From Patescibacteria group bacterium (lineage in GTDB: Bacteria > Patescibacteriota > Patescibacteriia > UBA9570 > JAHJKD01), in contig JBAZVM010000006.1 of the NCBI GenBank assembly GCA_041660885.1, forward strand, positions 15,063 through 79,062: a stretch of 64,000 nucleotides of DNA, written 5' to 3'. Position numbers and translations under genes: made by a program. Positions 52,373 through 61,750 of this stretch are shown one piece after another. Below the pieces are notes generated by a model. It did no database searches. It was given only the letters and a program-made list of their open reading frames with translations, and had not been told where the DNA came from. Each line of letters starts with the position of its first letter. Position 1 is the stretch's first letter.

Positions 52373-55300
52373 ATGCCGGATGCTACTAACCAGCAAGAAC
52401 AACAAAATCAGCCCAAAACACCAGAAAAGAGAAAACCCAGTATTTGGGAAGGAATAAAAATATTTTTTCGCAGAGGAGAACAAATCCAAGAAGAGGGCGC
52501 AAAAAAAGTCGATGCGGTACCGGAAGAAATAAGGCCGGAAGTGCAGCAAGTAGTATTGGAGAGCACCGATAGAATTGTGCGATATTTGGAGCAAGCCGAA
52601 AGAGAAATTCAAGAAGCGATGAGCGCGGGGATTAAAACACCGTCTGAGTCAATCAAACAAGAAATTGTTTTAAAATATAAGATTGATCAATTATCCGCTC
52701 AAGACGCCAGCGCGTTACTTAAAAAATTAGAGCTTGTTAAACCCGCCGTAGATGCCGGGCAAATTAATATTCGTAATATAGATGATTTAAATAATAATGC
52801 TGTGATTCCGCAGAATGCAGGAGCCCGCGAGTATCATTTATCACCCGAGGAAGTAAGGAAATTAAGCGAGCAAAGAGACGCTGTAGATGTTGTTGGAAGC
52901 GCTATTTATAAACCAGATGATCAGGTTGGCCCGCCGATAATCAACCCTGAAGATTTGATTGTATCTACCGACCCCGCAAAACGTAAAGCAATGCCTAACA
53001 TCAATAGTTTAGATCCTAATTTATTAACTATACAAGATATGTCGCCAAAAAAAAGACGCGGCCCCGATGCCATTCCTCCGGGAGCGGGCAATTTGGATGC
53101 CAAATTAGTTGATGGAACCTTGCTGGCTATTGGTGGCTTGGTTCGATTGGAAAATGACAATGTAAATACTTGGCAAATTACAGAAATACAATCTGGCAGA
53201 GTTGGGGTGGTTAATATTAATAATCCCAAAGAAAAAGAATGGTTGAAGAGAGGCAATGATGGAAAAGTTGATGAAATTGAAAGAACGCTCACGAAAGATG
53301 AAATCGATGCTTTATATCCGCCTGCTCCTGTGGCCGCTTCTTCCGGGCCAACACCGCCCAACCCCGCCACACCTCCGCCACCGGGCGCCATGCCTCCGCC
53401 ACCTCCGAGCCCCGCTGCTCCTCCCGCACCGCCTTCGGGCCCTCCAACGCGCGGCAGATTAGGTTCGCTATGGGATAGAGTGCGAGGCCGCGGCGATAGC
53501 GCTTTAACTCCGGAAGATAAAGAAAAAGCTTTATTAGCCAAGATGAGCCTGAGAGAATTTATCTACAGTCCGGATGATAAAGAAGCCATGATAGCTAAGG
53601 AAAACGCTATTAGTACGGCTCGTGGTTTATATGCGCGCGAGGGTAATGATGCCAATAAAAATGACTATAGATTAAAAATTAACGAATATCGCGCGGCTAT
53701 TAAGGAAGCGATAAATCGCAAAGATAGTATTCTAACCCCGGAAAAGAAAAAGCAATTTTTAGATGAGCTTTATATTTTAACCGTAGTAGACGAGGCAACA
53801 GCTTTATATGAAGCGCAACAACAGGCGCAGAGAGAAAGCCAGCCCGATGGAATAAAGAAAAAAGGAAAAGAATTATGGGCCAGATTTACCAACCATATAG
53901 ATAACCGTTTAAATTGGTATCGCGGTTTATCTTGGAAGAAAAAAATCGCGGTTAGCGCCGGTTTAATGGGAATAGGTTTAGCCGGCGGATTCGCCGGCGG
54001 CGCGATCGGCGCTTCAGCCGTGGGCGCGGCGGCAGCCGGCGGTTACGCTTTGCGTTTATTAGGCGCGACTGTCATGGCTAAAACCGGAGCGCGCTTGGGA
54101 AGCGACTATGCCCGCAAGCGGCAGCAAAGAAGGGATTTGGGAGATATCCAACAAACTCCGGAAAGCGCTGAATACCTAGCTGAAACGGACTTGGCAAAAA
54201 TTGAAAGTTTAGACAATGCTTTAAATGATAAATTATCCAGCTTATTGCAAAATCAAGCGCGAGATAAAAGAAACCGATTATTAGCCGCCACGGGCGGAGC
54301 CGTTCTCGGCGCCGGCGCTTCCATAGGTATTGGCCAGGTGGGCCGCTATTTATCTCACGATATCGTAGGCTATTTTCAAGGTGAAGCTCCAACAGCTGAA
54401 GCGCCCGTAGAACCAGCTGGTACTGCTAATACAGCTGAAGCTATGCCTCCTACTTCTAATGTCGCTCCCGAAGCGCCATCCACGGAAGTGATCAGGCCGG
54501 TGGCGACTCATTATTATACCAATGAAATAGAAGGCACAACCGGACGGGATTATGAATCTAAATCTTTGCTTCAATTGATTGAAGCGCATAAAACGGATTT
54601 GGGATATGATTCCAATACGGACGGAGATCCGGATAAATGGGTGCGCCATGAATTCCGTACAGCCATGGCCGAATTAAAAGGCAAAGGCCAATGGTATGAT
54701 TTAACTCATCAGGGAGATAGAGTGGTTTTGCAGGTGAATCCTGATGGCAGCCATGAGTATTCTTTTCAAAATGATTCTGCCATTGCCCCGGGCGAGCATT
54801 TGCCTCAACACGCGCCGGCCACCGTAGCCGAGTCCGCGGAACAACCGGCATTGGAACCTACTAAACCCGAAGTAATTCCCGAAGAGCATAGTTTATCTAC
54901 GGAAGAGGCGCGAGTATTGCATGATATGCAGCATTCGCATGAAGATACAATGAAACCCATGAAACACATGCAGGCCAGCCGTACCTTCGAGCGCAATTGG
55001 GACACTTTGCAACCTTTAGCCGAATCTTTAGGCCAGACTAAAGAGCAATTTAAAGATGCCTTGTTAGGCCATCTAGACAAAGGAGAAGATATCTCGGATA
55101 TTTATAGCCACGTTGCTCCGACAGCTGAAGCGTCTGTTTCTACTGGGGTATCCGCCGATGGGGTTGGTGAAAGTGGCGGCGGGGGAGCGGCAACTGCGGA
55201 TGAGACGGCTAAGGCTGAACCTCAGCAGGAAGCAGCAGGAATAGATAGCCATGCAGATACTCATATCTCTGCCGCAGACACATTAGATATTAGTTCTGAT

Positions 55301-55720
55301 ACAGTTCAATTATCACCGGAAGCGCTAAAAGGAGTGGATACGGTTTATTATCATCCCGTGGCTAATTATGGCGGTGTTTGGAATGAGCCGGTTACCGGAA
55401 GAGTGGCTCTTGATTTAAGCCCCTATACGCCGGAACAAAAAATGCAGATTATCCAGCTAACTAGGTTAATGAATGTGGCGGCTTTTATGGGAGAAAATCC
55501 AGAGCAACATGGATTAGGCGTAGCTCCGGATGTGGAAACATTTGTCGCTTTTGTTAATAAAGGCGAAGCTTTAAGCTGGCTGTATGATAGTAAAGTGGAT
55601 GGCGTGGCAATAGACATGGCAGACCGTGCCTTGCCGAAAACTATGAATCCACAAGAATGGCAGGATTATATCAGTTCTAATTTATTGCATACCCCTGATC
55701 AAAGAATGGCTGCGAAGTAG
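52373..55720 (+). CDS. very large hypothetical protein (1115 aa) with a polyproline tract and a central Gly/Ala-rich TM region
   Basis: Long ORF. PPPPGAMPPPPPSPAAPPAPPSGPP tract. Hydrophobic region IAVSAGLMGIGLAGGFAGGAIGASAVGAAAAGG. Confidence 0.6.
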   Translation: MPDATNQQEQQNQPKTPEKRKPSIWEGIKIFFRRGEQIQEEGAKKVDAVPEEIRPEVQQVVLESTDRIVRYLEQAEREIQEAMSAGIKTPSESIKQEIVLKYKIDQLSAQDASALLKKLELVKPAVDAGQINIRNIDDLNNNAVIPQNAGAREYHLSPEEVRKLSEQRDAVDVVGSAIYKPDDQVGPPIINPEDLIVSTDPAKRKAMPNINSLDPNLLTIQDMSPKKRRGPDAIPPGAGNLDAKLVDGTLLAIGGLVRLENDNVNTWQITEIQSGRVGVVNINNPKEKEWLKRGNDGKVDEIERTLTKDEIDALYPPAPVAASSGPTPPNPATPPPPGAMPPPPPSPAAPPAPPSGPPTRGRLGSLWDRVRGRGDSALTPEDKEKALLAKMSLREFIYSPDDKEAMIAKENAISTARGLYAREGNDANKNDYRLKINEYRAAIKEAINRKDSILTPEKKKQFLDELYILTVVDEATALYEAQQQAQRESQPDGIKKKGKELWARFTNHIDNRLNWYRGLSWKKKIAVSAGLMGIGLAGGFAGGAIGASAVGAAAAGGYALRLLGATVMAKTGARLGSDYARKRQQRRDLGDIQQTPESAEYLAETDLAKIESLDNALNDKLSSLLQNQARDKRNRLLAATGGAVLGAGASIGIGQVGRYLSHDIVGYFQGEAPTAEAPVEPAGTANTAEAMPPTSNVAPEAPSTEVIRPVATHYYTNEIEGTTGRDYESKSLLQLIEAHKTDLGYDSNTDGDPDKWVRHEFRTAMAELKGKGQWYDLTHQGDRVVLQVNPDGSHEYSFQNDSAIAPGEHLPQHAPATVAESAEQPALEPTKPEVIPEEHSLSTEEARVLHDMQHSHEDTMKPMKHMQASRTFERNWDTLQPLAESLGQTKEQFKDALLGHLDKGEDISDIYSHVAPTAEASVSTGVSADGVGESGGGGAATADETAKAEPQQEAAGIDSHADTHISAADTLDISSDTVQLSPEALKGVDTVYYHPVANYGGVWNEPVTGRVALDLSPYTPEQKMQIIQLTRLMNVAAFMGENPEQHGLGVAPDVETFVAFVNKGEALSWLYDSKVDGVAIDMADRALPKTMNPQEWQDYISSNLLHTPDQRMAAK

Positions 55721-55731
55721 CAGATCAAATT

Positions 55732-55756
55732 AAGCCCCGAAGCAATTCGGGGCTTT
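55732..55756 (+). terminator. intrinsic terminator with GNRA loop
   Basis: AAGCCCCGAA-GCAA-TTCGGGGCTT followed by a T-rich tail. Confidence 0.75.
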
Positions 55757-55774
55757 AATATGGGCTTTAGTATT

Positions 55775-55824
55775 CAAAGATATCCACAGTATAAAATTGC
55801 CATTTTAATATAGAGTGATACTAT
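55775..55824 (+). promoter_or_regulatory. 14-mer CAAAGATATCCACA box plus promoter upstream of the tRNA-like gene
   Basis: Box at 55775-55788. TTGCCA at 55797-55802, 16-nt spacer, TACTAT at 55819-55824. The same box-plus-promoter layout recurs at 56113-56164. Confidence 0.45.
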
Positions 55825-55832
55825 TTCTTTAG

Positions 55833-55875
55833 AGGTACTGTTGCTCGTATACTACGGGCAAAAGTGACTTGTCAA
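55833..55875 (-). repeat. inverted, degenerate copy of the tRNA-like 5-prime half plus a perfect 13-bp inverted repeat
   Basis: The reverse complement of 55833-55859 (GCCCGTAGTATACGAGCAACAGTACCT) matches 55927-55955 at 23 of 29 aligned positions. AGTGACTTGTCAA (55863-55875) is the exact reverse complement of 55956-55968. Confidence 0.6.
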
Positions 55876-55924
55876 TATATAGGCGTCCCAAATAGGGCGC
55901 TTTTATATTTATATGGTGGATCCC

Positions 55925-55999
55925 GGGCCCGTAGTGTAATGGCAGCACAGTACCTTTGACAAGTCACTAGTGCGGGTTCAATTCCCGTCGGGTCCACCA
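55925..55999 (+). tRNA. tRNA-like gene with encoded CCA but no canonical anticodon stem (possible pseudo-tRNA or recombination-scarred tRNA)
   Basis: 75 nt in total. Acceptor stem GGGCCCG/CGGGTCC. D arm GTGT-AATGGCA-GCAC. T arm GCGGG-TTCAATT-CCCGT. Discriminator A followed by CCA. The 17-nt anticodon-arm slot GTACCTTTGACAAGTCA cannot form a 5-bp stem. Confidence 0.6.
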
Positions 56000-56032
56000 C
56001 CTAAAAAACAACATTATTTAAATAACATTAAT

Positions 56033-56105
56033 AAACCCCAATGCCCTGTGCTCCGCCGTAGCGTAGCCGCTAGGCTGCGCAGAGGCGAGAATTTGGGGTT
56101 TATTT
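56033..56105 (+). terminator. long compound hairpin with U-rich tail downstream of the tRNA-like gene
   Basis: Outer stem AAACCCCAAT / ATTTGGGGTTT. Inner GC-rich hairpin GCGTAGCC-GCTA-GGCTGCGC (56061-56080). Followed by TTTATTT. Confidence 0.55.
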
Positions 56106-56112
56106 GTACCCC

Positions 56113-56164
56113 CAAAGATATCCACACCATAGGTATTGACAATATCCTCGCTCGGGTGTATTAT
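56113..56164 (+). promoter_or_regulatory. CAAAGATATCCACA box plus near-consensus sigma70 promoter driving the island leader
   Basis: Box at 56113-56126. TTGACA at 56136-56141, exact 17-nt spacer, TATTAT at 56159-56164. Confidence 0.65.
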
Positions 56165-56167
56165 AGC

Positions 56168-56896
56168 TGGTTCTTTTAAAATCAATTTTTGCCCTTACCG
56201 TTCAGCAAGCAATTGCTGGCCGGGTTATCCGTAACAAAAAAGCCTCAATCTAACCTTGAATTTGCAGGAGTGTTATACGGATGGAGGTTTTTTTGTTGCG
56301 GATATAAAGGGCTGCAACATACAGCGTCCGAAGGCCTCTGCCCCGCCTTGGCGGGGAAGAGGTCCGCGGTTCGCTGATATCCCTTCGAAGCTCGAGTGAA
56401 ACGAGAGCGAAGGAGGATGAATGAAGCAAATTGATATGCTCTTTACAATAGATTTATAAGCCACGCGGGAAACCAGGTTAAGGGCAGCAGGAATGTTATA
56501 TATAGGCACTTGCCTTCGAAAGCTCGTCCTATTGGTGGTGATATTATTATCGCTATTAATAGATCGAGCTTTTGGGCAAGTGCGCATAGCATTTCTACTG
56601 TCCTTGACCTGGCCCGCGTCCCTGTGAAGTTCCGAAAGGAACTGAACAGGACGGCGCGCCAGAACCCACTGAAGTGAACCCGAATGGGTACTTCACTGAA
56701 GGGGACCCCGATGGGCCCTTCAGGGAGATCGGAAACGATCTTCACGGGGATCCGAAAGGGTCTCTTGAGAGATTCGAAAGAATTTCTCGGGTATCCTGGC
56801 ATAGGGCCGGGTCAGTCATGGATAACGAGACATCACCGAGTGCGACCGCAACACAGGGCCGCACTTTTCCAGCAACTCCAAACGAGGTTAACAGCC
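56168..56896 (+). ncRNA. about 0.7 kb highly structured leader or large ncRNA candidate (many GNRA-capped hairpins)
   Basis: No credible ORF. Hairpins: 56203-56218 (GCAA loop), long-range helix 56226-56246 with 56283-56307, 56335-56362, 56382-56412, helix 56506-56527 with 56564-56584, 56621-56650 (CCTGT-GA-AGTTCC-GAAA-GGAACT-GA-ACAGG), 56696-56723, and three back-to-back GAAA hairpins at 56726-56741, 56746-56765 and 56767-56788. Confidence 0.55.
56840..56868 (+). terminator. possible attenuator hairpin just upstream of the cassette-1 RBS
   Basis: GTGCGACC-GCAACACAG-GGCCGCAC followed by TTTT. GAGG RBS at 56884-56887. Confidence 0.35.
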
Positions 56897-57640
56897 ATGA
56901 TGACCCTTCTGGCCCTTCTGACCCTGAACGCCTTCGCCGACGAGCCCGTCATCGACCGCATCATCATCCGCTCGTTCCCGACCGAGGCGGCCCCGATCGA
57001 TCCGTGCACGGACCCCTGCGCCAAGCCGGAGCCCGTCGTCAAGTACGTCGACACGGGCACGAACGACCACGACCAGGCGATTGCCGAGAGCGACAACGCC
57101 GCCGACGTCGCGATCGCCGAGAGTGCCGACGGCCGCGACATCGCCATCGCCACGGTCGAGTCCACAACCACGCTCGGTCTCGCCACCGAGGAGACCAAGC
57201 AGCAGGCGGCGCTGAGCCCGACGATCGAAGACGTCGCCCGAGCCGCTGCAGCTGGTGGGGCGCCGCTCTACATCAACATGGAGACCGGCATCATCAGCAC
57301 CGGCCGGCCCATGTACACCTCCGAGATCGTCGCCACGCAGGAAGGGAACCCCGCGGACCCGAAGACCAGCCTCACCTACGCCACCGGGCGCAAGGTGACC
57401 TCCTCGCAGCTCCGCGGCCTCCAGCCCCTCGACATCCGCCACAACGGCCACCTCGACTGGGCCCCGGCGATCGCGGCCACCGTCGTTGGATTCGCCGCGG
57501 GCTTCATCGCCGGCGGTGACTACCAGCACATCAACGACGGGCAGACCGACACCCTCTACGCGAACTACGGGCTCCGGTCCGTCCTCGCGGGCGCGGGCGT
57601 CGGCGCGGCCACCGGCGGGCTGGCCCTGTTCACCTTCTAG
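56897..57640 (+). CDS. high-GC cassette 1: secreted/membrane protein (247 aa) with Gly-zipper-like C-terminal helices
   Basis: GAGG RBS 9 nt upstream. Signal peptide MMTLLALLTLNAFA-DEP. GC3-rich codons. Repeats D(x)AIAES. C-terminal GFAAGFIAGG and AGAGVGAATGGLALFTF. Confidence 0.7.
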   Translation: MMTLLALLTLNAFADEPVIDRIIIRSFPTEAAPIDPCTDPCAKPEPVVKYVDTGTNDHDQAIAESDNAADVAIAESADGRDIAIATVESTTTLGLATEETKQQAALSPTIEDVARAAAAGGAPLYINMETGIISTGRPMYTSEIVATQEGNPADPKTSLTYATGRKVTSSQLRGLQPLDIRHNGHLDWAPAIAATVVGFAAGFIAGGDYQHINDGQTDTLYANYGLRSVLAGAGVGAATGGLALFTF

Positions 57641-57825
57641 CCTCTGGCTGGAGGTGAGCCCCGATCTTGGCCACGGGTGAGTTGGCCAAAAAACACTGCC
57701 CCGGGTTCCTTCACGAAGGGACCTGGGCAACTGGGAGGAGAAGTGAGATCAATCAAGACACAGCATCTTCTCTTCCCTTCCAGTTCAGTGCTTCTTAGCA
57801 AAGCTAGGGAGCAGTGAGAATGGAA
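57641..57825 (+). ncRNA. cassette 3-prime structured module, copy 1 (pseudoknot, mid hairpin, SD-like hairpin HP1, hairpin HP2)
   Basis: Pseudoknot: CCCG-ATCTTGGCCA-CGGG (57660-57677) with loop TTGGCCA pairing to TGGCCAA (57683-57689). Mid hairpin 57700-57727. HP1 57729-57785, with core GGGAGGAGAAG / CTTCTCTTCCC. HP2 57789-57813. Confidence 0.6.
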
Positions 57826-58021
57826 TTCGTTCTTTACAATAAAATCCGATTCAATAGCCCATTTGCAGGATAACCGGGCTGCGAAATATGACTGCATCAT
57901 AAATGATGTATCCATATTCCGTGGCCTGGCCTGCTAGGGTGCCTAAGTTCTTGTGCAGAGGGATTGTCCCACCGCGCATTTACCCCGGCTCCTTTTGGGC
58001 TGGGCCAGAACACGGTAACAC

Positions 58022-58042
58022 GGCCCTACTATCTATAGGGCC
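58022..58042 (+). promoter_or_regulatory. leader hairpin immediately upstream of the cassette-2 RBS
   Basis: GGCCCTA-CTATCTA-TAGGGCC, followed by a GGAG RBS at 58049-58052. Confidence 0.4.
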
Positions 58043-58058
58043 ATCACTGGAGAACGCC

Positions 58059-58502
<444 letters not shown>

Positions 58503-58685
58503 TCTCGGTGCCAGCTAGTCCGATCTTGATCCCGGACGATAATTGTGGATCACACCTACAGCCCCGAGTCCTAGATAGGACATCGGGCAACTGGGAGGAG
58601 AAGTGAGATCATACATGTTACAGCATCTTCTCTTCCCTTCCAGTTCAGTGCTTCTTAGCAAAGCTAGGGAGCAGTGAGAATGGAA
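58503..58685 (+). ncRNA. cassette 3-prime structured module, copy 2
   Basis: Pseudoknot: GTCCG-ATCTTGATCC-CGGAC (58518-58537) with loop TGATCC pairing to GGATCA (58547-58552). Mid hairpin 58563-58587. HP1 58589-58645. HP2 58649-58673. The last 100 nt equal copy 1 except for a 10-nt loop segment. Confidence 0.6.
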
Positions 58686-58698
58686 AAGGGGAGTAACT

Positions 58699-58782
58699 GA
58701 ATCACAGATTACGCAGATAAATATAGATAACACAGATATATTTTTAAGAGTAATCAGTATTAATCTGTGTAATCTGTGATTC
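58699..58782. mobile_element. CACAGAT-type inverted-repeat element A (MITE-like, no ORF)
   Basis: Left arm GAATCACAGATTACGCAGATAAA. The right arm reverse complement is GAATCACAGATTACACAGATTAA. 38-bp AT-rich centre. Confidence 0.55.
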
Positions 58783-58841
58783 AACGCCCTATGAGAAAAT
58801 CGTCGTACCTTTAAATTTATTATCAACCCCTTAACGGGTTT

Positions 58842-58897
58842 CAGGTCATGGAAGATGCGCGTTATATGAAAATATAACGATCGTCTCCCATGACCTG
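58842..58897 (+). promoter_or_regulatory. 56-nt extended hairpin with GAAA tetraloop in the cassette-3 leader
   Basis: 26-bp stem (3 mismatches, 1 GU pair) capped by GAAA. Its 3-prime arm overlaps the conserved GACCTGGCCCGCG motif. Confidence 0.55.
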
Positions 58898-58981
58898 GCC
58901 CGCGCCAGAGCTCGCACAAGGAGCATCCTGGCCAAGAAAGGGTCGGGTCAGTCTTGGGGTCACCCAGAACAGGAGTATGCC

Positions 58982-59296
58982 GTGAACATCAACTCGTGGT
59001 GGAAGTGGCTGTTGACCGTCGTCGTCACCCTCGTGGTCTTCGGACTCGGCATCGTCGTCGGGCACTACGCGTGGACTCCGTCCAACGCGCCCGTCGTCGT
59101 CGCGCAGTCCCAGACCTACCCCGACTTCCAGCAGCTCGCCGCGCTTGCCGCGAGCGGGTACGAGGTGGAGGTGGTCTACAACACCCCCGCCACCGTCCCC
59201 GTCGAGGTGCCGGTCTACGTGCCCGTCGAGGTCGAGCGCATCCCGGCCGAGGAGCCGAGCAAGGGCTCCAAGGCGTCGAAGGCCCCCGCGCGCTAG
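58982..59296 (+). CDS. high-GC cassette 3: small N-terminally anchored protein (104 aa)
   Basis: AGGAG RBS 6 nt upstream of the GTG start. TM helix WKWLLTVVVTLVVFGLGIVVG. Val/Pro/Glu-rich tail. Confidence 0.6.
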   Translation: MNINSWWKWLLTVVVTLVVFGLGIVVGHYAWTPSNAPVVVAQSQTYPDFQQLAALAASGYEVEVVYNTPATVPVEVPVYVPVEVERIPAEEPSKGSKASKAPAR

Positions 59297-59470
59297 CAGT
59301 AGCGCATGGGATAGTCCGACTCTGACCCCGGACGAAAATTGTGGGTCAAAGCTACGAAAGGGTACCCTTCGGGGGACCCGCGGGAGGGAACTGAGATATG
59401 ACTGCAACAGCATGTTCTCTCCCTTCCGCAAAAGTGTTCGTGAGGTTTCTACATAAATAAACCTCGAGAA
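59297..59470 (+). ncRNA. cassette 3-prime structured module, copy 3 (diverged, with compensatory changes)
   Basis: Pseudoknot: GTCCG-ACTCTGACCC-CGGAC (59314-59333) with loop TGACCC pairing to GGGTCA (59343-59348). Mid hairpin with UUCG loop 59360-59379. HP1 GGGAGGGAAC / GTTCTCTCCC 59382-59423. Terminal hairpin 59442-59465. Confidence 0.6.
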
Positions 59471-59486
59471 TAGTTAGCGGAATAAA

Positions 59487-59597
59487 GGTATCACAGACGG
59501 AATCACAGATTACACAGATAAATAAAAAATAAACACAGATAAGAAAACATCTGTGCAATCTGTGATCAATGTATTTATCTGCGGCATCCGTGATTCC
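59487..59597. mobile_element. CACAGAT-type inverted-repeat element B (MITE-like, no ORF)
   Basis: Outer inverted repeat 59499-59524 versus 59572-59597 (22 of 26 match). Nested inner CACAGAT/ATCTGTG repeats. Confidence 0.55.
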
Positions 59598-59648
59598 CTT
59601 ACTCCTTGCTGGACATATTAATTATTTCAGGTATTATAATAAACAAGG

Positions 59649-59675
59649 CGGCTCCCAATGCGGAGGCGTTTTTTT
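59649..59675 (+). terminator. intrinsic terminator
   Basis: CGGCTCC-CAATGC-GGAGGCG stem followed by T7. Confidence 0.55.
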
Positions 59676-59691
59676 ATTTATGGCGATGAAT

Positions 59692-60169
59692 GAATCACAA
59701 ATCACACAGATAAATCTCCGGATGGTATCGATAATTAATTTATTTAATATAAATATATGGAAGAAAATAATAAGGAAATAACATATAAAGTTATAGGTGT
59801 TGCTTATGAAGTACATAATAATTTGGGACCGGGGTTTCAAGAGGTTATTTATCAAAGGGCGCTGGCGCGAGAATTTATGGCAAAAAATATTAATTTCGCG
59901 CGTGAAGAATGGATTCCGGTATACTATAAAAATACCGTAATTGGAAAAAGAAGAGTGGATTTTACACTGTCAAAAATCATCGTCGAAATAAAAGCAAGAG
60001 CTGAAATTAAACCTAAAGATTACATTCAAACTTTATCATATTTAAAAGCGACTAAATTTAAAATAGCTCTGCTATTAAATTTTGGTACGAAACAACTACA
60101 AGTCAAACGATTTATTAATTAATCTAGTTATCTGTGTTTATCTGCATTCATTTGTGTCATCTGTGATTC
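59692..60169. mobile_element. CACAGAT-type inverted-repeat element C carrying the GxxExxY gene
   Basis: Left arm GAATCACAAATCACACAGATAAAT (59692-59715). The right arm reverse complement is GAATCACAGATGACACAAAT (60150-60169). Confidence 0.55.
59757..60122 (+). CDS. GxxExxY family protein (PD-(D/E)XK nuclease-like)
   Basis: 121 aa. Eponymous motif GFQEVIY. Overall pattern YxVIGxAxEVHxxLGxGFxExxYxxAL...RxDFxxxxxIVEIKA...LNFG matches recalled family members. Confidence 0.8.
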   Translation: MEENNKEITYKVIGVAYEVHNNLGPGFQEVIYQRALAREFMAKNINFAREEWIPVYYKNTVIGKRRVDFTLSKIIVEIKARAEIKPKDYIQTLSYLKATKFKIALLLNFGTKQLQVKRFIN

Positions 60170-60187
60170 AGCTACTCCCTTTTGTTC

Positions 60188-60216
60188 TTGACATTTTCCT
60201 CTTCGCATGTTACGTT
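60188..60216 (+). promoter_or_regulatory. candidate promoter for cassette 4
   Basis: TTGACA at 60188-60193, 17-nt spacer, TACGTT at 60211-60216. Confidence 0.45.
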
Positions 60217-60404
60217 ATTTCGTTCTCCTGCCCATTTCCCATGGGGATTTTTGCGGCGAATTTTTGTGTTTATTTTAGCCGTATAAACCCCCAAAGGACA
60301 ATGGGGAGTTTCTCAAGCCGTTACCACAGGGGTGGAACGGCGATGTGCGACAGGAAGAGAGAACCCGCCCTCCCACGATAGTGGGACGGCATAGTGAGAA
60401 GACA

Positions 60405-61661
<1,257 letters not shown>

Positions 61662-61750
61662 GTTTTTTTGGCAGCGCCCCGCTATGGCGAGGTGCCTGCC
61701 CCCGGGAGGAGAAGTGAGATTGTCAGCTACTGCATCTTCTCTTCCCTCCC
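61662..61750 (+). ncRNA. cassette 3-prime module, copy 4 (a different upstream hairpin, then HP1)
   Basis: GGCAG(CGCC-CCGCTAT-GGCG)AGGTGCCTGCC hairpin. HP1 GGGAGGAGAAG / CTTCTCTTCCC at 61704-61746, with loop TGAGAT-TGTCAGCTAC-TGCAT. Confidence 0.5.

Follow-up and report, generated by a model that had tools for sequence, protein, structure and literature searches.

A putative disabled tRNA-Ala(UGC) paralogue with an antisense leader in a Patescibacteria genome, and its possible origin by short-range template switching

Introduction

Several described systems resemble parts of the locus presented here, a tRNA-like gene preceded by a leader in the genome of a Patescibacteria group bacterium. Template switching is known to leave behind clustered substitutions and indels from which perfect inverted repeats result, in some cases with the donor upstream of the altered site, and the authors who described these clusters warn that matches under 12-13 bp may arise by chance (PMC5453318). 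The 13-nt candidate donor at our locus is of just that length, yet it lies within 100 nt of its target and beside two more patches. [quoted passage not shown] The separation of donor and target by 81 nt, the restriction of the similarity to the reverse complement and the overlap of two patches at a GC dinucleotide are further points in common with template-switch mutations. The locus differs from them in carrying several misordered patches, which would call for more than one switch or event.

A second group for comparison is formed by tRNA genes and their irregular relatives. G3:U70 is the major identity element of alanine tRNAs, and alanine identity is independent of the anticodon (PMC7609411). 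Irregular tRNA-like genes and pseudogenes share with our gene a tRNA shape that gene finders cannot assign, a possible capacity to be charged through G3:U70 and a probable lack of a role in translation; theirs, however, is an altered acceptor, D-stem or junction geometry, often in clustered genes, whereas the geometry here is canonical except in the anticodon arm and the gene is solitary (PMC7609411). Canonical elongator tRNA-Ala(UGC) agrees with our gene in its acceptor stem, with G3:U70 and A73, in its T arm, in its overall length and in the type of its D arm, and the loop of our gene still reads UUUG.CAA around an inserted base. What sets our gene apart from canonical tRNA-Ala(UGC) is a split anticodon, an unstable stem and a 93-nt leader that is antisense to the tRNA.

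The tRNA-like domain of tmRNA and a viral mini tRNA-like element (L048) also combine an alanine-type acceptor with G3:U70 and an ACCA end with the loss of a normal anticodon arm. L048 and our gene do not differ in the T arm and 3' end (GCGGGUUCAAUUCCCGUCGGGUCCACCA), but our gene, unlike L048, keeps a full D arm. Unlike tmRNA, it has neither a tag reading frame nor pseudoknots, and both ARAGORN and Rfam class it as tRNA. Finally, island attachment sites of the attL/attR type may likewise combine an altered anticodon arm in a tRNA gene with foreign DNA that follows within 1 kb downstream. Our locus departs from such sites in its repeats, which are inverted and include the 5' half. Moreover, the ORFs between 41 and 64 kb include no integrase, and the tRNA 3' part is not directly repeated anywhere in the window, the whole stretch of 64,000 nucleotides that was analyzed. 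A preliminary description of this DNA had read the locus as a scar left at an island attachment point by site-specific recombination or inversion, or else as a deliberately non-decoding tRNA-like RNA. Here, both proposals are weighed against the origin that we consider the best explanation, in which a tRNA-Ala paralogue was disabled and its leader assembled through short-range template switching.

Results

Alanine identity of the tRNA-like gene

The features of the locus are collected in Table 1. ARAGORN finds a single tRNA-like gene in the window, 75 nt long and on the plus strand, which it labels "tRNA-??? anticodon (ga)" and leaves without a type. The Rfam tRNA model (RF00005) gives it 47.3 bits against a gathering score of 29, and in the ARAGORN drawing the acceptor, D and T arms are intact while the anticodon arm has two internal mismatches. 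Together, the drawing and the Rfam score confirm what had been described beforehand, namely, canonical length, an encoded CCA and good acceptor, D and T arms. In an alignment of seven family members, every acceptor, D and T pair of the gene is formed and cloverleaf pairing is present in 93% of cells, with compensatory changes (covariation) at four of the five anticodon-stem pairs. The nucleotides engaged in tertiary interactions are likewise all intact in the gene.

Table 1. Features of the tRNA-like gene, its leader and the adjoining DNA (positions in the window)
Feature	Position	Strand	Basis or remark
Promoter-proximal element CAAAGATATCCACA, copy 1	55775..55788	+	8 nt upstream of the P1 -35 hexamer
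Sigma-70-like promoter P1 (TTGCCA, 16-nt spacer, TGnTACTAT)	55797..55824	+	Consensus scan, 9/12 with TG extension; prediction
Reverse-complement copy of tRNA positions 3-31	55833..55860	+	Perfect 9-mers 55833-41 (= 55947-55) and 55851-59 (= 55927-35)
13-nt perfect reverse complement of tRNA anticodon loop and 3' stem strand	55863..55875	+	Partner 55956-68
Terminator-like hairpin of 8 pairs (55881-55902), then T-rich tail	55881..55912	+	Between inverted block and tRNA
Leader segment TGGTGGATCC	55914..55923	+	Complementary to tRNA 3' end GGGTCCACCA, 7 Watson-Crick pairs and 3 more, one of them G-U
Predicted tRNA-Ala(UGC)-derived gene	55925..55999	+	G1-C72, G3:U70, A73, encoded CCA; anticodon arm broken
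Lesion-bearing segment TTGACAAGTCACT	55956..55968	+	Against reconstructed arm TTG-CAAGGTACT: inserted A (55959), two changed bases (55964-65)
Long G+C-rich hairpin, then TTTATTTGT	56030..56107	+	RNAfold -42.3 kcal/mol
CAAAGATATCCACA copy 2, then promoter P2 (TTGACA, 17-nt spacer, TATTAT)	56113..56164	+	Start of neighboring conserved RNA unit

The alanine identity set is present, with g+t at the third acceptor position and A before the CCA, and a G-U pair occupies the G3:U70 column in six of the seven family members. Three archaeal tRNA-Ala genes have the same D arm and T arm, and a further scan added five tRNA-Ala(UGC) genes of viral origin in which this D arm recurs. Shared between our gene and these archaeal and viral tRNA-Ala genes are the acceptor GGGCCYG/CRGGUCC with G3:U70, the D arm GUGU-AAUGGNA-RCAY and the T loop. 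Judged by its sequence, the gene derives from tRNA-Ala(UGC) and carries a compact lesion. The anticodon is not read by AlaRS. As G3:U70 is kept and the anticodon plays no part in recognition by AlaRS, the RNA is predicted to be probably still chargeable with alanine.

Other origins for the tRNA body were considered and rejected. Sixteen loci with the same 5' half, mainly tRNA-Gln genes, have only the D arm in common with it; the acceptor (G1-C72, G3:U70 and A73) and the loop are those expected of Ala(UGC), for which genuine genes with this D arm exist, and this speaks against an origin from tRNA-Gln. A chimera in which an attachment junction in the loop unites two halves of tRNA-Val(GAC) is at odds with a body that matches tRNA-Ala throughout and with G3:U70 as the family norm instead of a hybrid mismatch, and no displaced half was found in the window. 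Analogies with T-box elements, tmRNA, Y-RNA-like RNAs, retrons and split or permuted tRNAs were abandoned, as no model matched and no gene for a reverse transcriptase or other partner was seen nearby. ARAGORN reported no tmRNA in the window. Among Rfam families, RF00005 alone reaches its threshold in the window, and no other family has E < 0.2 in 55700-56400.

A probable compact lesion in the anticodon arm

The gene's own 5' stem strand gives a canonical arm of GUACC-UUUGCAA-GGUAC, and the observed arm is GUACC-UUUG[A]CAA-G[UC]AC, a comparison in which the ancestral state is reconstructed from this one sequence, the collections and relatives searched having yielded no outgroup for the time before the event. 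The inserted A sits inside the anticodon UGC, and the two adjacent changes affect the 3' strand of the stem. The 13 nt that are mirrored upstream contain all three changes; by our own estimate, three random independent changes on 72 positions would all fall within the 13-nt patch with a chance of about 0.006. Four events would be needed instead of three if the 5-nt variable loop of the relatives is ancestral. When the arm is repaired, ARAGORN reports tRNA-Ala(tgc), and deletion of the extra A alone also gives Ala(tgc).

Two of the five anticodon-stem pairs are present in the canonical register and three of five with an 8-nt loop. In the Infernal alignment to the Rfam tRNA model, the anticodon stem has two non-pairs and closes a loop of 8 nt, UUUGACAA; the two inner stem positions are A.C and C.U. 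Folded alone, the arm reaches 0.0 kcal/mol as observed versus -7.7 kcal/mol when repaired. The fold without an anticodon stem has -22.0 kcal/mol, the bulged form -21.8 and the best alternative -23.1, so that no register gains more than 1.1 kcal/mol. A stable anticodon stem is thus predicted by these folds to be unattainable.

The earlier statement that the arm cannot form the canonical 5-bp stem agrees with the non-pairs placed by ARAGORN and Infernal and with the folding energy of the arm alone, and the comparison with tRNA finders that had been suggested, made here with ARAGORN and the Rfam tRNA model, returned no valid anticodon arm. A bulged stem with a 9-nt loop had been named as the best alternative, which its energy relative to the stemless fold does not sustain. 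As the extra A splits UGC and the two changes in the 3' strand abolish the stem, the RNA should not decode.

Inverted patches of the tRNA in the leader

The first 43 nt of the leader (55833-55875) consist only of reverse-complement patches of tRNA positions 23-31, 3-11 and 32-44(49), in scrambled order, with the latter two patches overlapping at the GC dinucleotide 55858-59. Gapped alignment of the inverted copy of the tRNA 5' half gives 23/29 matches, which resolve into two perfect 9-mers around a divergent center; the differences between copy and tRNA are therefore not scattered and are confined to a central segment of 9-11 nt. This center (55841-50) is at about 8/9 positions the reverse complement of a neighboring patch and takes part in a 9-bp hairpin (55841-61). 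Of the two inverted repeats present, one joins 55839-59 with 55927-47. The other, the 13-nt repeat, extends to 16/18 over 55858-75 and 55956-73, and the duplex of 55863-75 with its partner is worth -18.7 kcal/mol. Where pairing is interrupted next to a perfect patch, the mismatch is in most cases G-U when read on the plus strand.

Much of this had been noticed in the preliminary description and was recovered by the present analysis: the perfect 13-bp inverted repeat with its two arms 81 bp apart, its near-palindromic core, the degenerate minus-strand copy of the tRNA 5' half at 23 of 29 positions, and an order of segments that is permuted relative to a simple hairpin, the two repeats having different centers. 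The three complementarities between leader and tRNA cross each other and so cannot all be formed in one molecule.

Exact matches of at least 7 nt between leader and tRNA measure 13, 9, 9 and 7 nt and occur in the reverse complement only; the direct, reverse-only and complement-only control orientations gave no exact match of at least 7 nt. Not one of 2000 shuffles of the leader contained a 13-nt complementary segment (maximum, 11), and three or more segments of at least 9 nt occurred in 0/2000. The 13-bp inverted repeat together with the 23/29 inverted copy is far beyond chance. The pairing of the segment next to the tRNA (55914-23) with the tRNA 3' end is not significant alone, a 7-mer being present in 343 of 2000 shuffles. 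That the leader arose as a tandem copy, degenerate and in direct orientation to the tRNA, was rejected on the absence of any signal in that orientation. The sequence is identical in a second assembly of run SRR18595301, which may derive from the same read set, so that a quirk of the assembler is ruled out and a variant specific to the sample is not.

Predicted transcription and folding of the unit

The start predicted from promoter P1 lies near 55832 and coincides with the beginning of the inverted-copy block. Folded alone, the leader forms two hairpins, the second of which is the terminator-like hairpin ahead of the tRNA. The long G+C-rich hairpin downstream of the tRNA is, on its predicted fold, likely the terminator of the tRNA transcription unit. 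A read-through transcript of leader and tRNA folds to -70.4 kcal/mol (z = -5.4) in a structure dominated by pairing of the leader with the tRNA 5' half, and this pairing is also predicted in the full transcript. According to these models, the pairing between leader and tRNA should hinder formation of the cloverleaf and maturation.

The exact 14-mer CAAAGATATCCACA occurs in the window only at 55775 and 56113. A target-site duplication on either side of an inserted module was entertained for this 14-bp direct repeat, whose copies bracket the tRNA unit, and rejected. The likeness between its surroundings ends at the 14-mer itself, both copies stand 8-9 nt before a -35 hexamer, and the core ATCCACA is conserved at the orthologous promoter of a relative (L056), so that a shared promoter element is the simpler account.

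Surroundings and syntenic relatives

The window is an ordinary segment of bacterial chromosome at about 40% G+C, with genes for glmS, a NiFe hydrogenase, GldG, ribosomal proteins L10 and L7/L12 and the cell envelope. Genes of foreign composition, at about 70% G+C against the 40% background, begin at ~56.9 kb, about 0.9 kb downstream of the tRNA. Two distant syntenic relatives keep the upstream gene order, with an orthologous large protein (E = 8e-40), and neither has a tRNA at the syntenic position, where the tRNA module itself is missing and not merely an insert. Comparison of the syntenic locus, as had been proposed earlier, thus found no intact tRNA in these two relatives. L056 keeps promoter P2 and about 170 nt of the structured RNA found 3' of the tRNA, with the ATCCACA core upstream of that promoter. 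As P2 and this ~170-nt RNA are conserved at the syntenic position in L056, the DNA directly 3' of the tRNA appears to be native and not island DNA.

Neither 185,579 species-representative genomes nor a metagenome collection nor viral contigs contain a match to the odd anticodon arm, and the whole leader-tRNA unit has none in a phage collection. Missing homologues and relatives that are devoid of the module point to a recent, lineage-specific event, as far as comparison of sequences allows.

Discussion

We propose, with a probability of about 0.5, that the locus holds a recently disabled, lineage-specific tRNA-Ala paralogue and that its leader and its lesion are the footprints of template switching. 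A putative tRNA-Ala(UGC) paralogue would have lost its anticodon arm through the inserted A and the two adjacent changes in the 3' strand, and the agent would have been short-range template switching during replication or repair, in which a polymerase briefly copies the nearby opposite strand. Two orders of events are conceivable. The leader copy could have acted as donor and overwritten the tRNA arm, a near-perfect repeat being "corrected" to a perfect one, or the arm lesion could have come first and the leader patch could have been copied from it afterwards. In a related study, short template-switch mutations were reportedly linked to RNA hairpins.

Template switching appears to fit better than a site-specific recombinase with the out-of-order reverse-complement patches. 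This reading is suggested because the similarity is confined to the reverse complement, the short patches are perfect and misordered, and the cluster of changes coincides with a perfect inverted repeat. The broader claim of the preliminary description, that the gene is a non-decoding tRNA derivative bearing the footprint of a DNA rearrangement at its anticodon arm, is upheld by the analysis; the kind of rearrangement it preferred is not. A scar or active site of site-specific recombination, whether an island attachment junction in the anticodon loop or an invertible 80-bp segment, is very unlikely in our judgment. It would account for perfect 13-bp inverted repeats around a near-palindromic core, for the foreign genes that follow within a kilobase and for the missing tRNA module at the syntenic place in two relatives. 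Domains of integrases, invertases or transposases are, however, absent from the ORFs between 41 and 64 kb, and BLAST finds in the window no direct repeat of the tRNA 3' part or of the predicted native 3' half that would represent a displaced copy. The repeats are inverted instead of direct and extend to the 5' half of the tRNA, a part that is not duplicated at attachment sites, and the DNA immediately 3' of the tRNA is conserved in a relative. An invertible segment of 80 bp would be unusually short, and inversion of 55876-55955 is expected from the sequence only to split the tRNA and to yield no alternative gene. An artefact of assembly or amplification, such as a fold-back chimera, has next to no likelihood. 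In its favor, the evidence possibly comes from a single read set, but the sequence is identical in two different assemblies, and the patches of 9-13 nt are far below assembler k-mers and the size of amplification chimeras. The intergenic region around the patches is, moreover, ordinary in other respects, with a promoter and terminators.

The likeliest alternative, although we regard it as doubtful, is that leader and gene form a functional pair under selection, in which an alanine-accepting, deliberately non-decoding tRNA-like RNA is controlled by its leader or by a small RNA of ~77 nt. The latter would end at the terminator-like hairpin (55881-55902), which could release the two-hairpin leader RNA, and would pair with the anticodon arm (13 bp) and with the 5' half of the tRNA. 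Such an RNA could serve as a regulated donor of alanine for a non-ribosomal reaction, or as a tRNA mimic or decoy. It would agree with this that the alanine identity set and the tertiary nucleotides are intact and that the altered part is only what AlaRS does not need; that a good P1 promoter is preceded by an element common to the conserved neighboring promoter; and that the unit has a strong terminator of its own and an otherwise flawless body. The complementarity is in the antisense sense only, and its extensions use G-U pairs available on the plus strand alone, which hints weakly that RNA pairing has been selected. Bacteria are, moreover, known to have tRNA-like genes that are irregular and non-translating (PMC7609411). 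Against a selected pair, the collections searched hold no homologues and the syntenic relatives have no module, which leaves no sign of selection; no aminoacyl-tRNA-dependent transferase was seen among the neighbors; the mutually crossing complementarities cannot coexist in one molecule; and the long leader helix would, by the predicted folds, block folding of the tRNA and not tune it. The deliberately non-decoding RNA of the preliminary description is likewise doubtful, and positive evidence for it, such as conservation or covariation, did not appear. In a more elaborate version, which we think quite unlikely, the leader or small RNA, transcribed from the same promoter as the tRNA-like RNA, would be designed to clamp the arm over 13 bp and to sequester the 5' half, and CAAAGATATCCACA would co-regulate the pair with the neighboring structured RNA and with the foreign, G+C-rich genes for secreted proteins. 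It is extremely improbable that the gene still decodes through an anticodon loop expanded to 8 or 9 nt, acting as an alanine-inserting frameshift suppressor or quadruplet reader. The 8-nt loop of the Infernal alignment does have a U at the equivalent of position 33 and a purine after the anticodon, and an anticodon-independent alanine identity would allow charging. All expanded-loop decoders known to us, on the other hand, keep a closed 5-bp stem. The mismatched inner pairs leave this arm without predicted stability, the extra base inside the anticodon makes the quadruplet UGAC, whose target GUCA has no relation to the codons for alanine, and conservation of the arm is absent from the genome, metagenome and viral collections.

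If the template-switch reading is right, the locus would be a clean bacterial example of short-range switching that struck a structured RNA gene, where switching gave rise to a leader complementary to its own tRNA and went together with the three changes that disable the arm. This remains a single-genome case, one sequence without covariation. It may also follow that an inverted repeat next to a tRNA is not enough to indicate an island attachment site. Were the functional pair to prove true instead, a regulated, alanine-charged, non-decoding tRNA mimic would imply an unknown tRNA-dependent process in a bacterium with a reduced genome, and the designed version of the pair would represent a new way of gating a non-ribosomal alanyl donor or a tRNA decoy in Patescibacteria (CPR).

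The tRNA-like gene is flanked by a gene for a protein of 1115 amino acids. A C-terminal query of the flanking protein returned no matches, and in the search for other strains, the flanking genes were found outside the assembly of the window on a single 21.7-kb contig from one run.

Sequence features flanking the tRNA-like gene

The tRNA-like gene, a probably disabled derivative of tRNA-Ala(UGC), shows local self-complementarity that may favor template switching at two places. At the 5' junction of the gene, the palindromic hexamers GGATCC, CCCGGG, and GGGCCC overlap densely in GGATCCCGGGCCC, and in the anticodon/variable region the palindrome CACTAGTG was itself produced by the lesion (the inserted A and two changed bases of the anticodon arm).

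Two neighboring predicted promoters share an exact 14-mer, CAAAGATATCCACA, which lies 8 to 9 nt upstream of the -35 hexamer in each and whose core, ATCCACA, is kept at the orthologous promoter in the syntenic locus of a related genome. CAAAGATATCCACA is possibly a regulator binding site that the tRNA-like unit has in common with the RNA unit next to it.

The adjacent RNA unit begins with a strong promoter-like site (TTGACA, a 17-nt spacer, and TATTAT), followed by ~730 nt that hold no convincing open reading frame and are bounded on the 3' side by ATGATG, where a secreted-protein gene likely starts. Conservation at the syntenic position of the related genome covers the first ~170 nt, among them a long A-tract/U-tract hairpin (ATCCGTAACAAAAAAGCC...GGTTTTTTTGTTGCGGAT), and at least five short GAAA-capped hairpins lie farther along. 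Rfam gave zero family matches at E ≤ 1 for this RNA stretch. It may represent a previously undescribed RNA: a leader, a riboswitch-like element, or a large structured one.

For the 1115-aa protein encoded upstream, no homologue was detectable by word-seeded search. Its colinear orthologue in a syntenic relative is a 708-aa protein (26% identity, E = 8e-40), compared with which the window protein has ~400 additional N-terminal amino acids, including a proline-rich tract.

Secreted-protein genes and a possible cassette array

The products of four genes of ~70% G+C, in a genome of 40% G+C, are secreted proteins containing (Asp-Thr)n runs; one product also carries MopE-type metal-binding repeats. 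Each gene is followed by a conserved ~100-nt element, and the arrangement looks like a cassette array. Within the same region, a GxxExxY gene is flanked by A+T-rich inverted-repeat elements (TGAATCACAGATTAC...); this A+T-rich gene and its neighbors are also present on contigs from ENA, JGI, and Logan run SRR6484324, besides run SRR18595301.

Coordinates of the features (window positions unless a locus is named)
Feature	Position	Strand
1115-aa protein	52373-55720	
CAAAGATATCCACA copies	55775-55788; 56113-56126	
GGATCCCGGGCCC	55917-55930	
CACTAGTG	55965-55972	
RNA unit	56136-56897	+
Syntenic region of the RNA unit, relative	L056 8540-8760	
ATGATG	56897	
Four G+C-rich genes	56897-61661	
~100-nt element (95% identity to each other)	57725-57825; 58585-58685	
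~100-nt element, partial	61704-61750	
GxxExxY gene	59757-60122	
Alanine-type element, viral contig	L048 2529-2604	-
tRNA, metagenome contig	L027 1551-1622	-

Other aberrant tRNA-like elements

A 76-nt alanine-type tRNA-like element lies within a 28-tRNA phage array on a viral contig. It has G3:U70 and an Ala(UGC)-like loop, with an aberrant D region, and its T arm and 3' end are identical to those of the window gene. ARAGORN makes no call for this element, and against the tmRNA model it scores 15 bits, with only the model's two ends matched. Another unassignable tRNA, reported by ARAGORN as 'tRNA-??? (at)', occurs on a metagenome contig; it shares its D arm with the window gene and has an anticodon loop of 6 nt.
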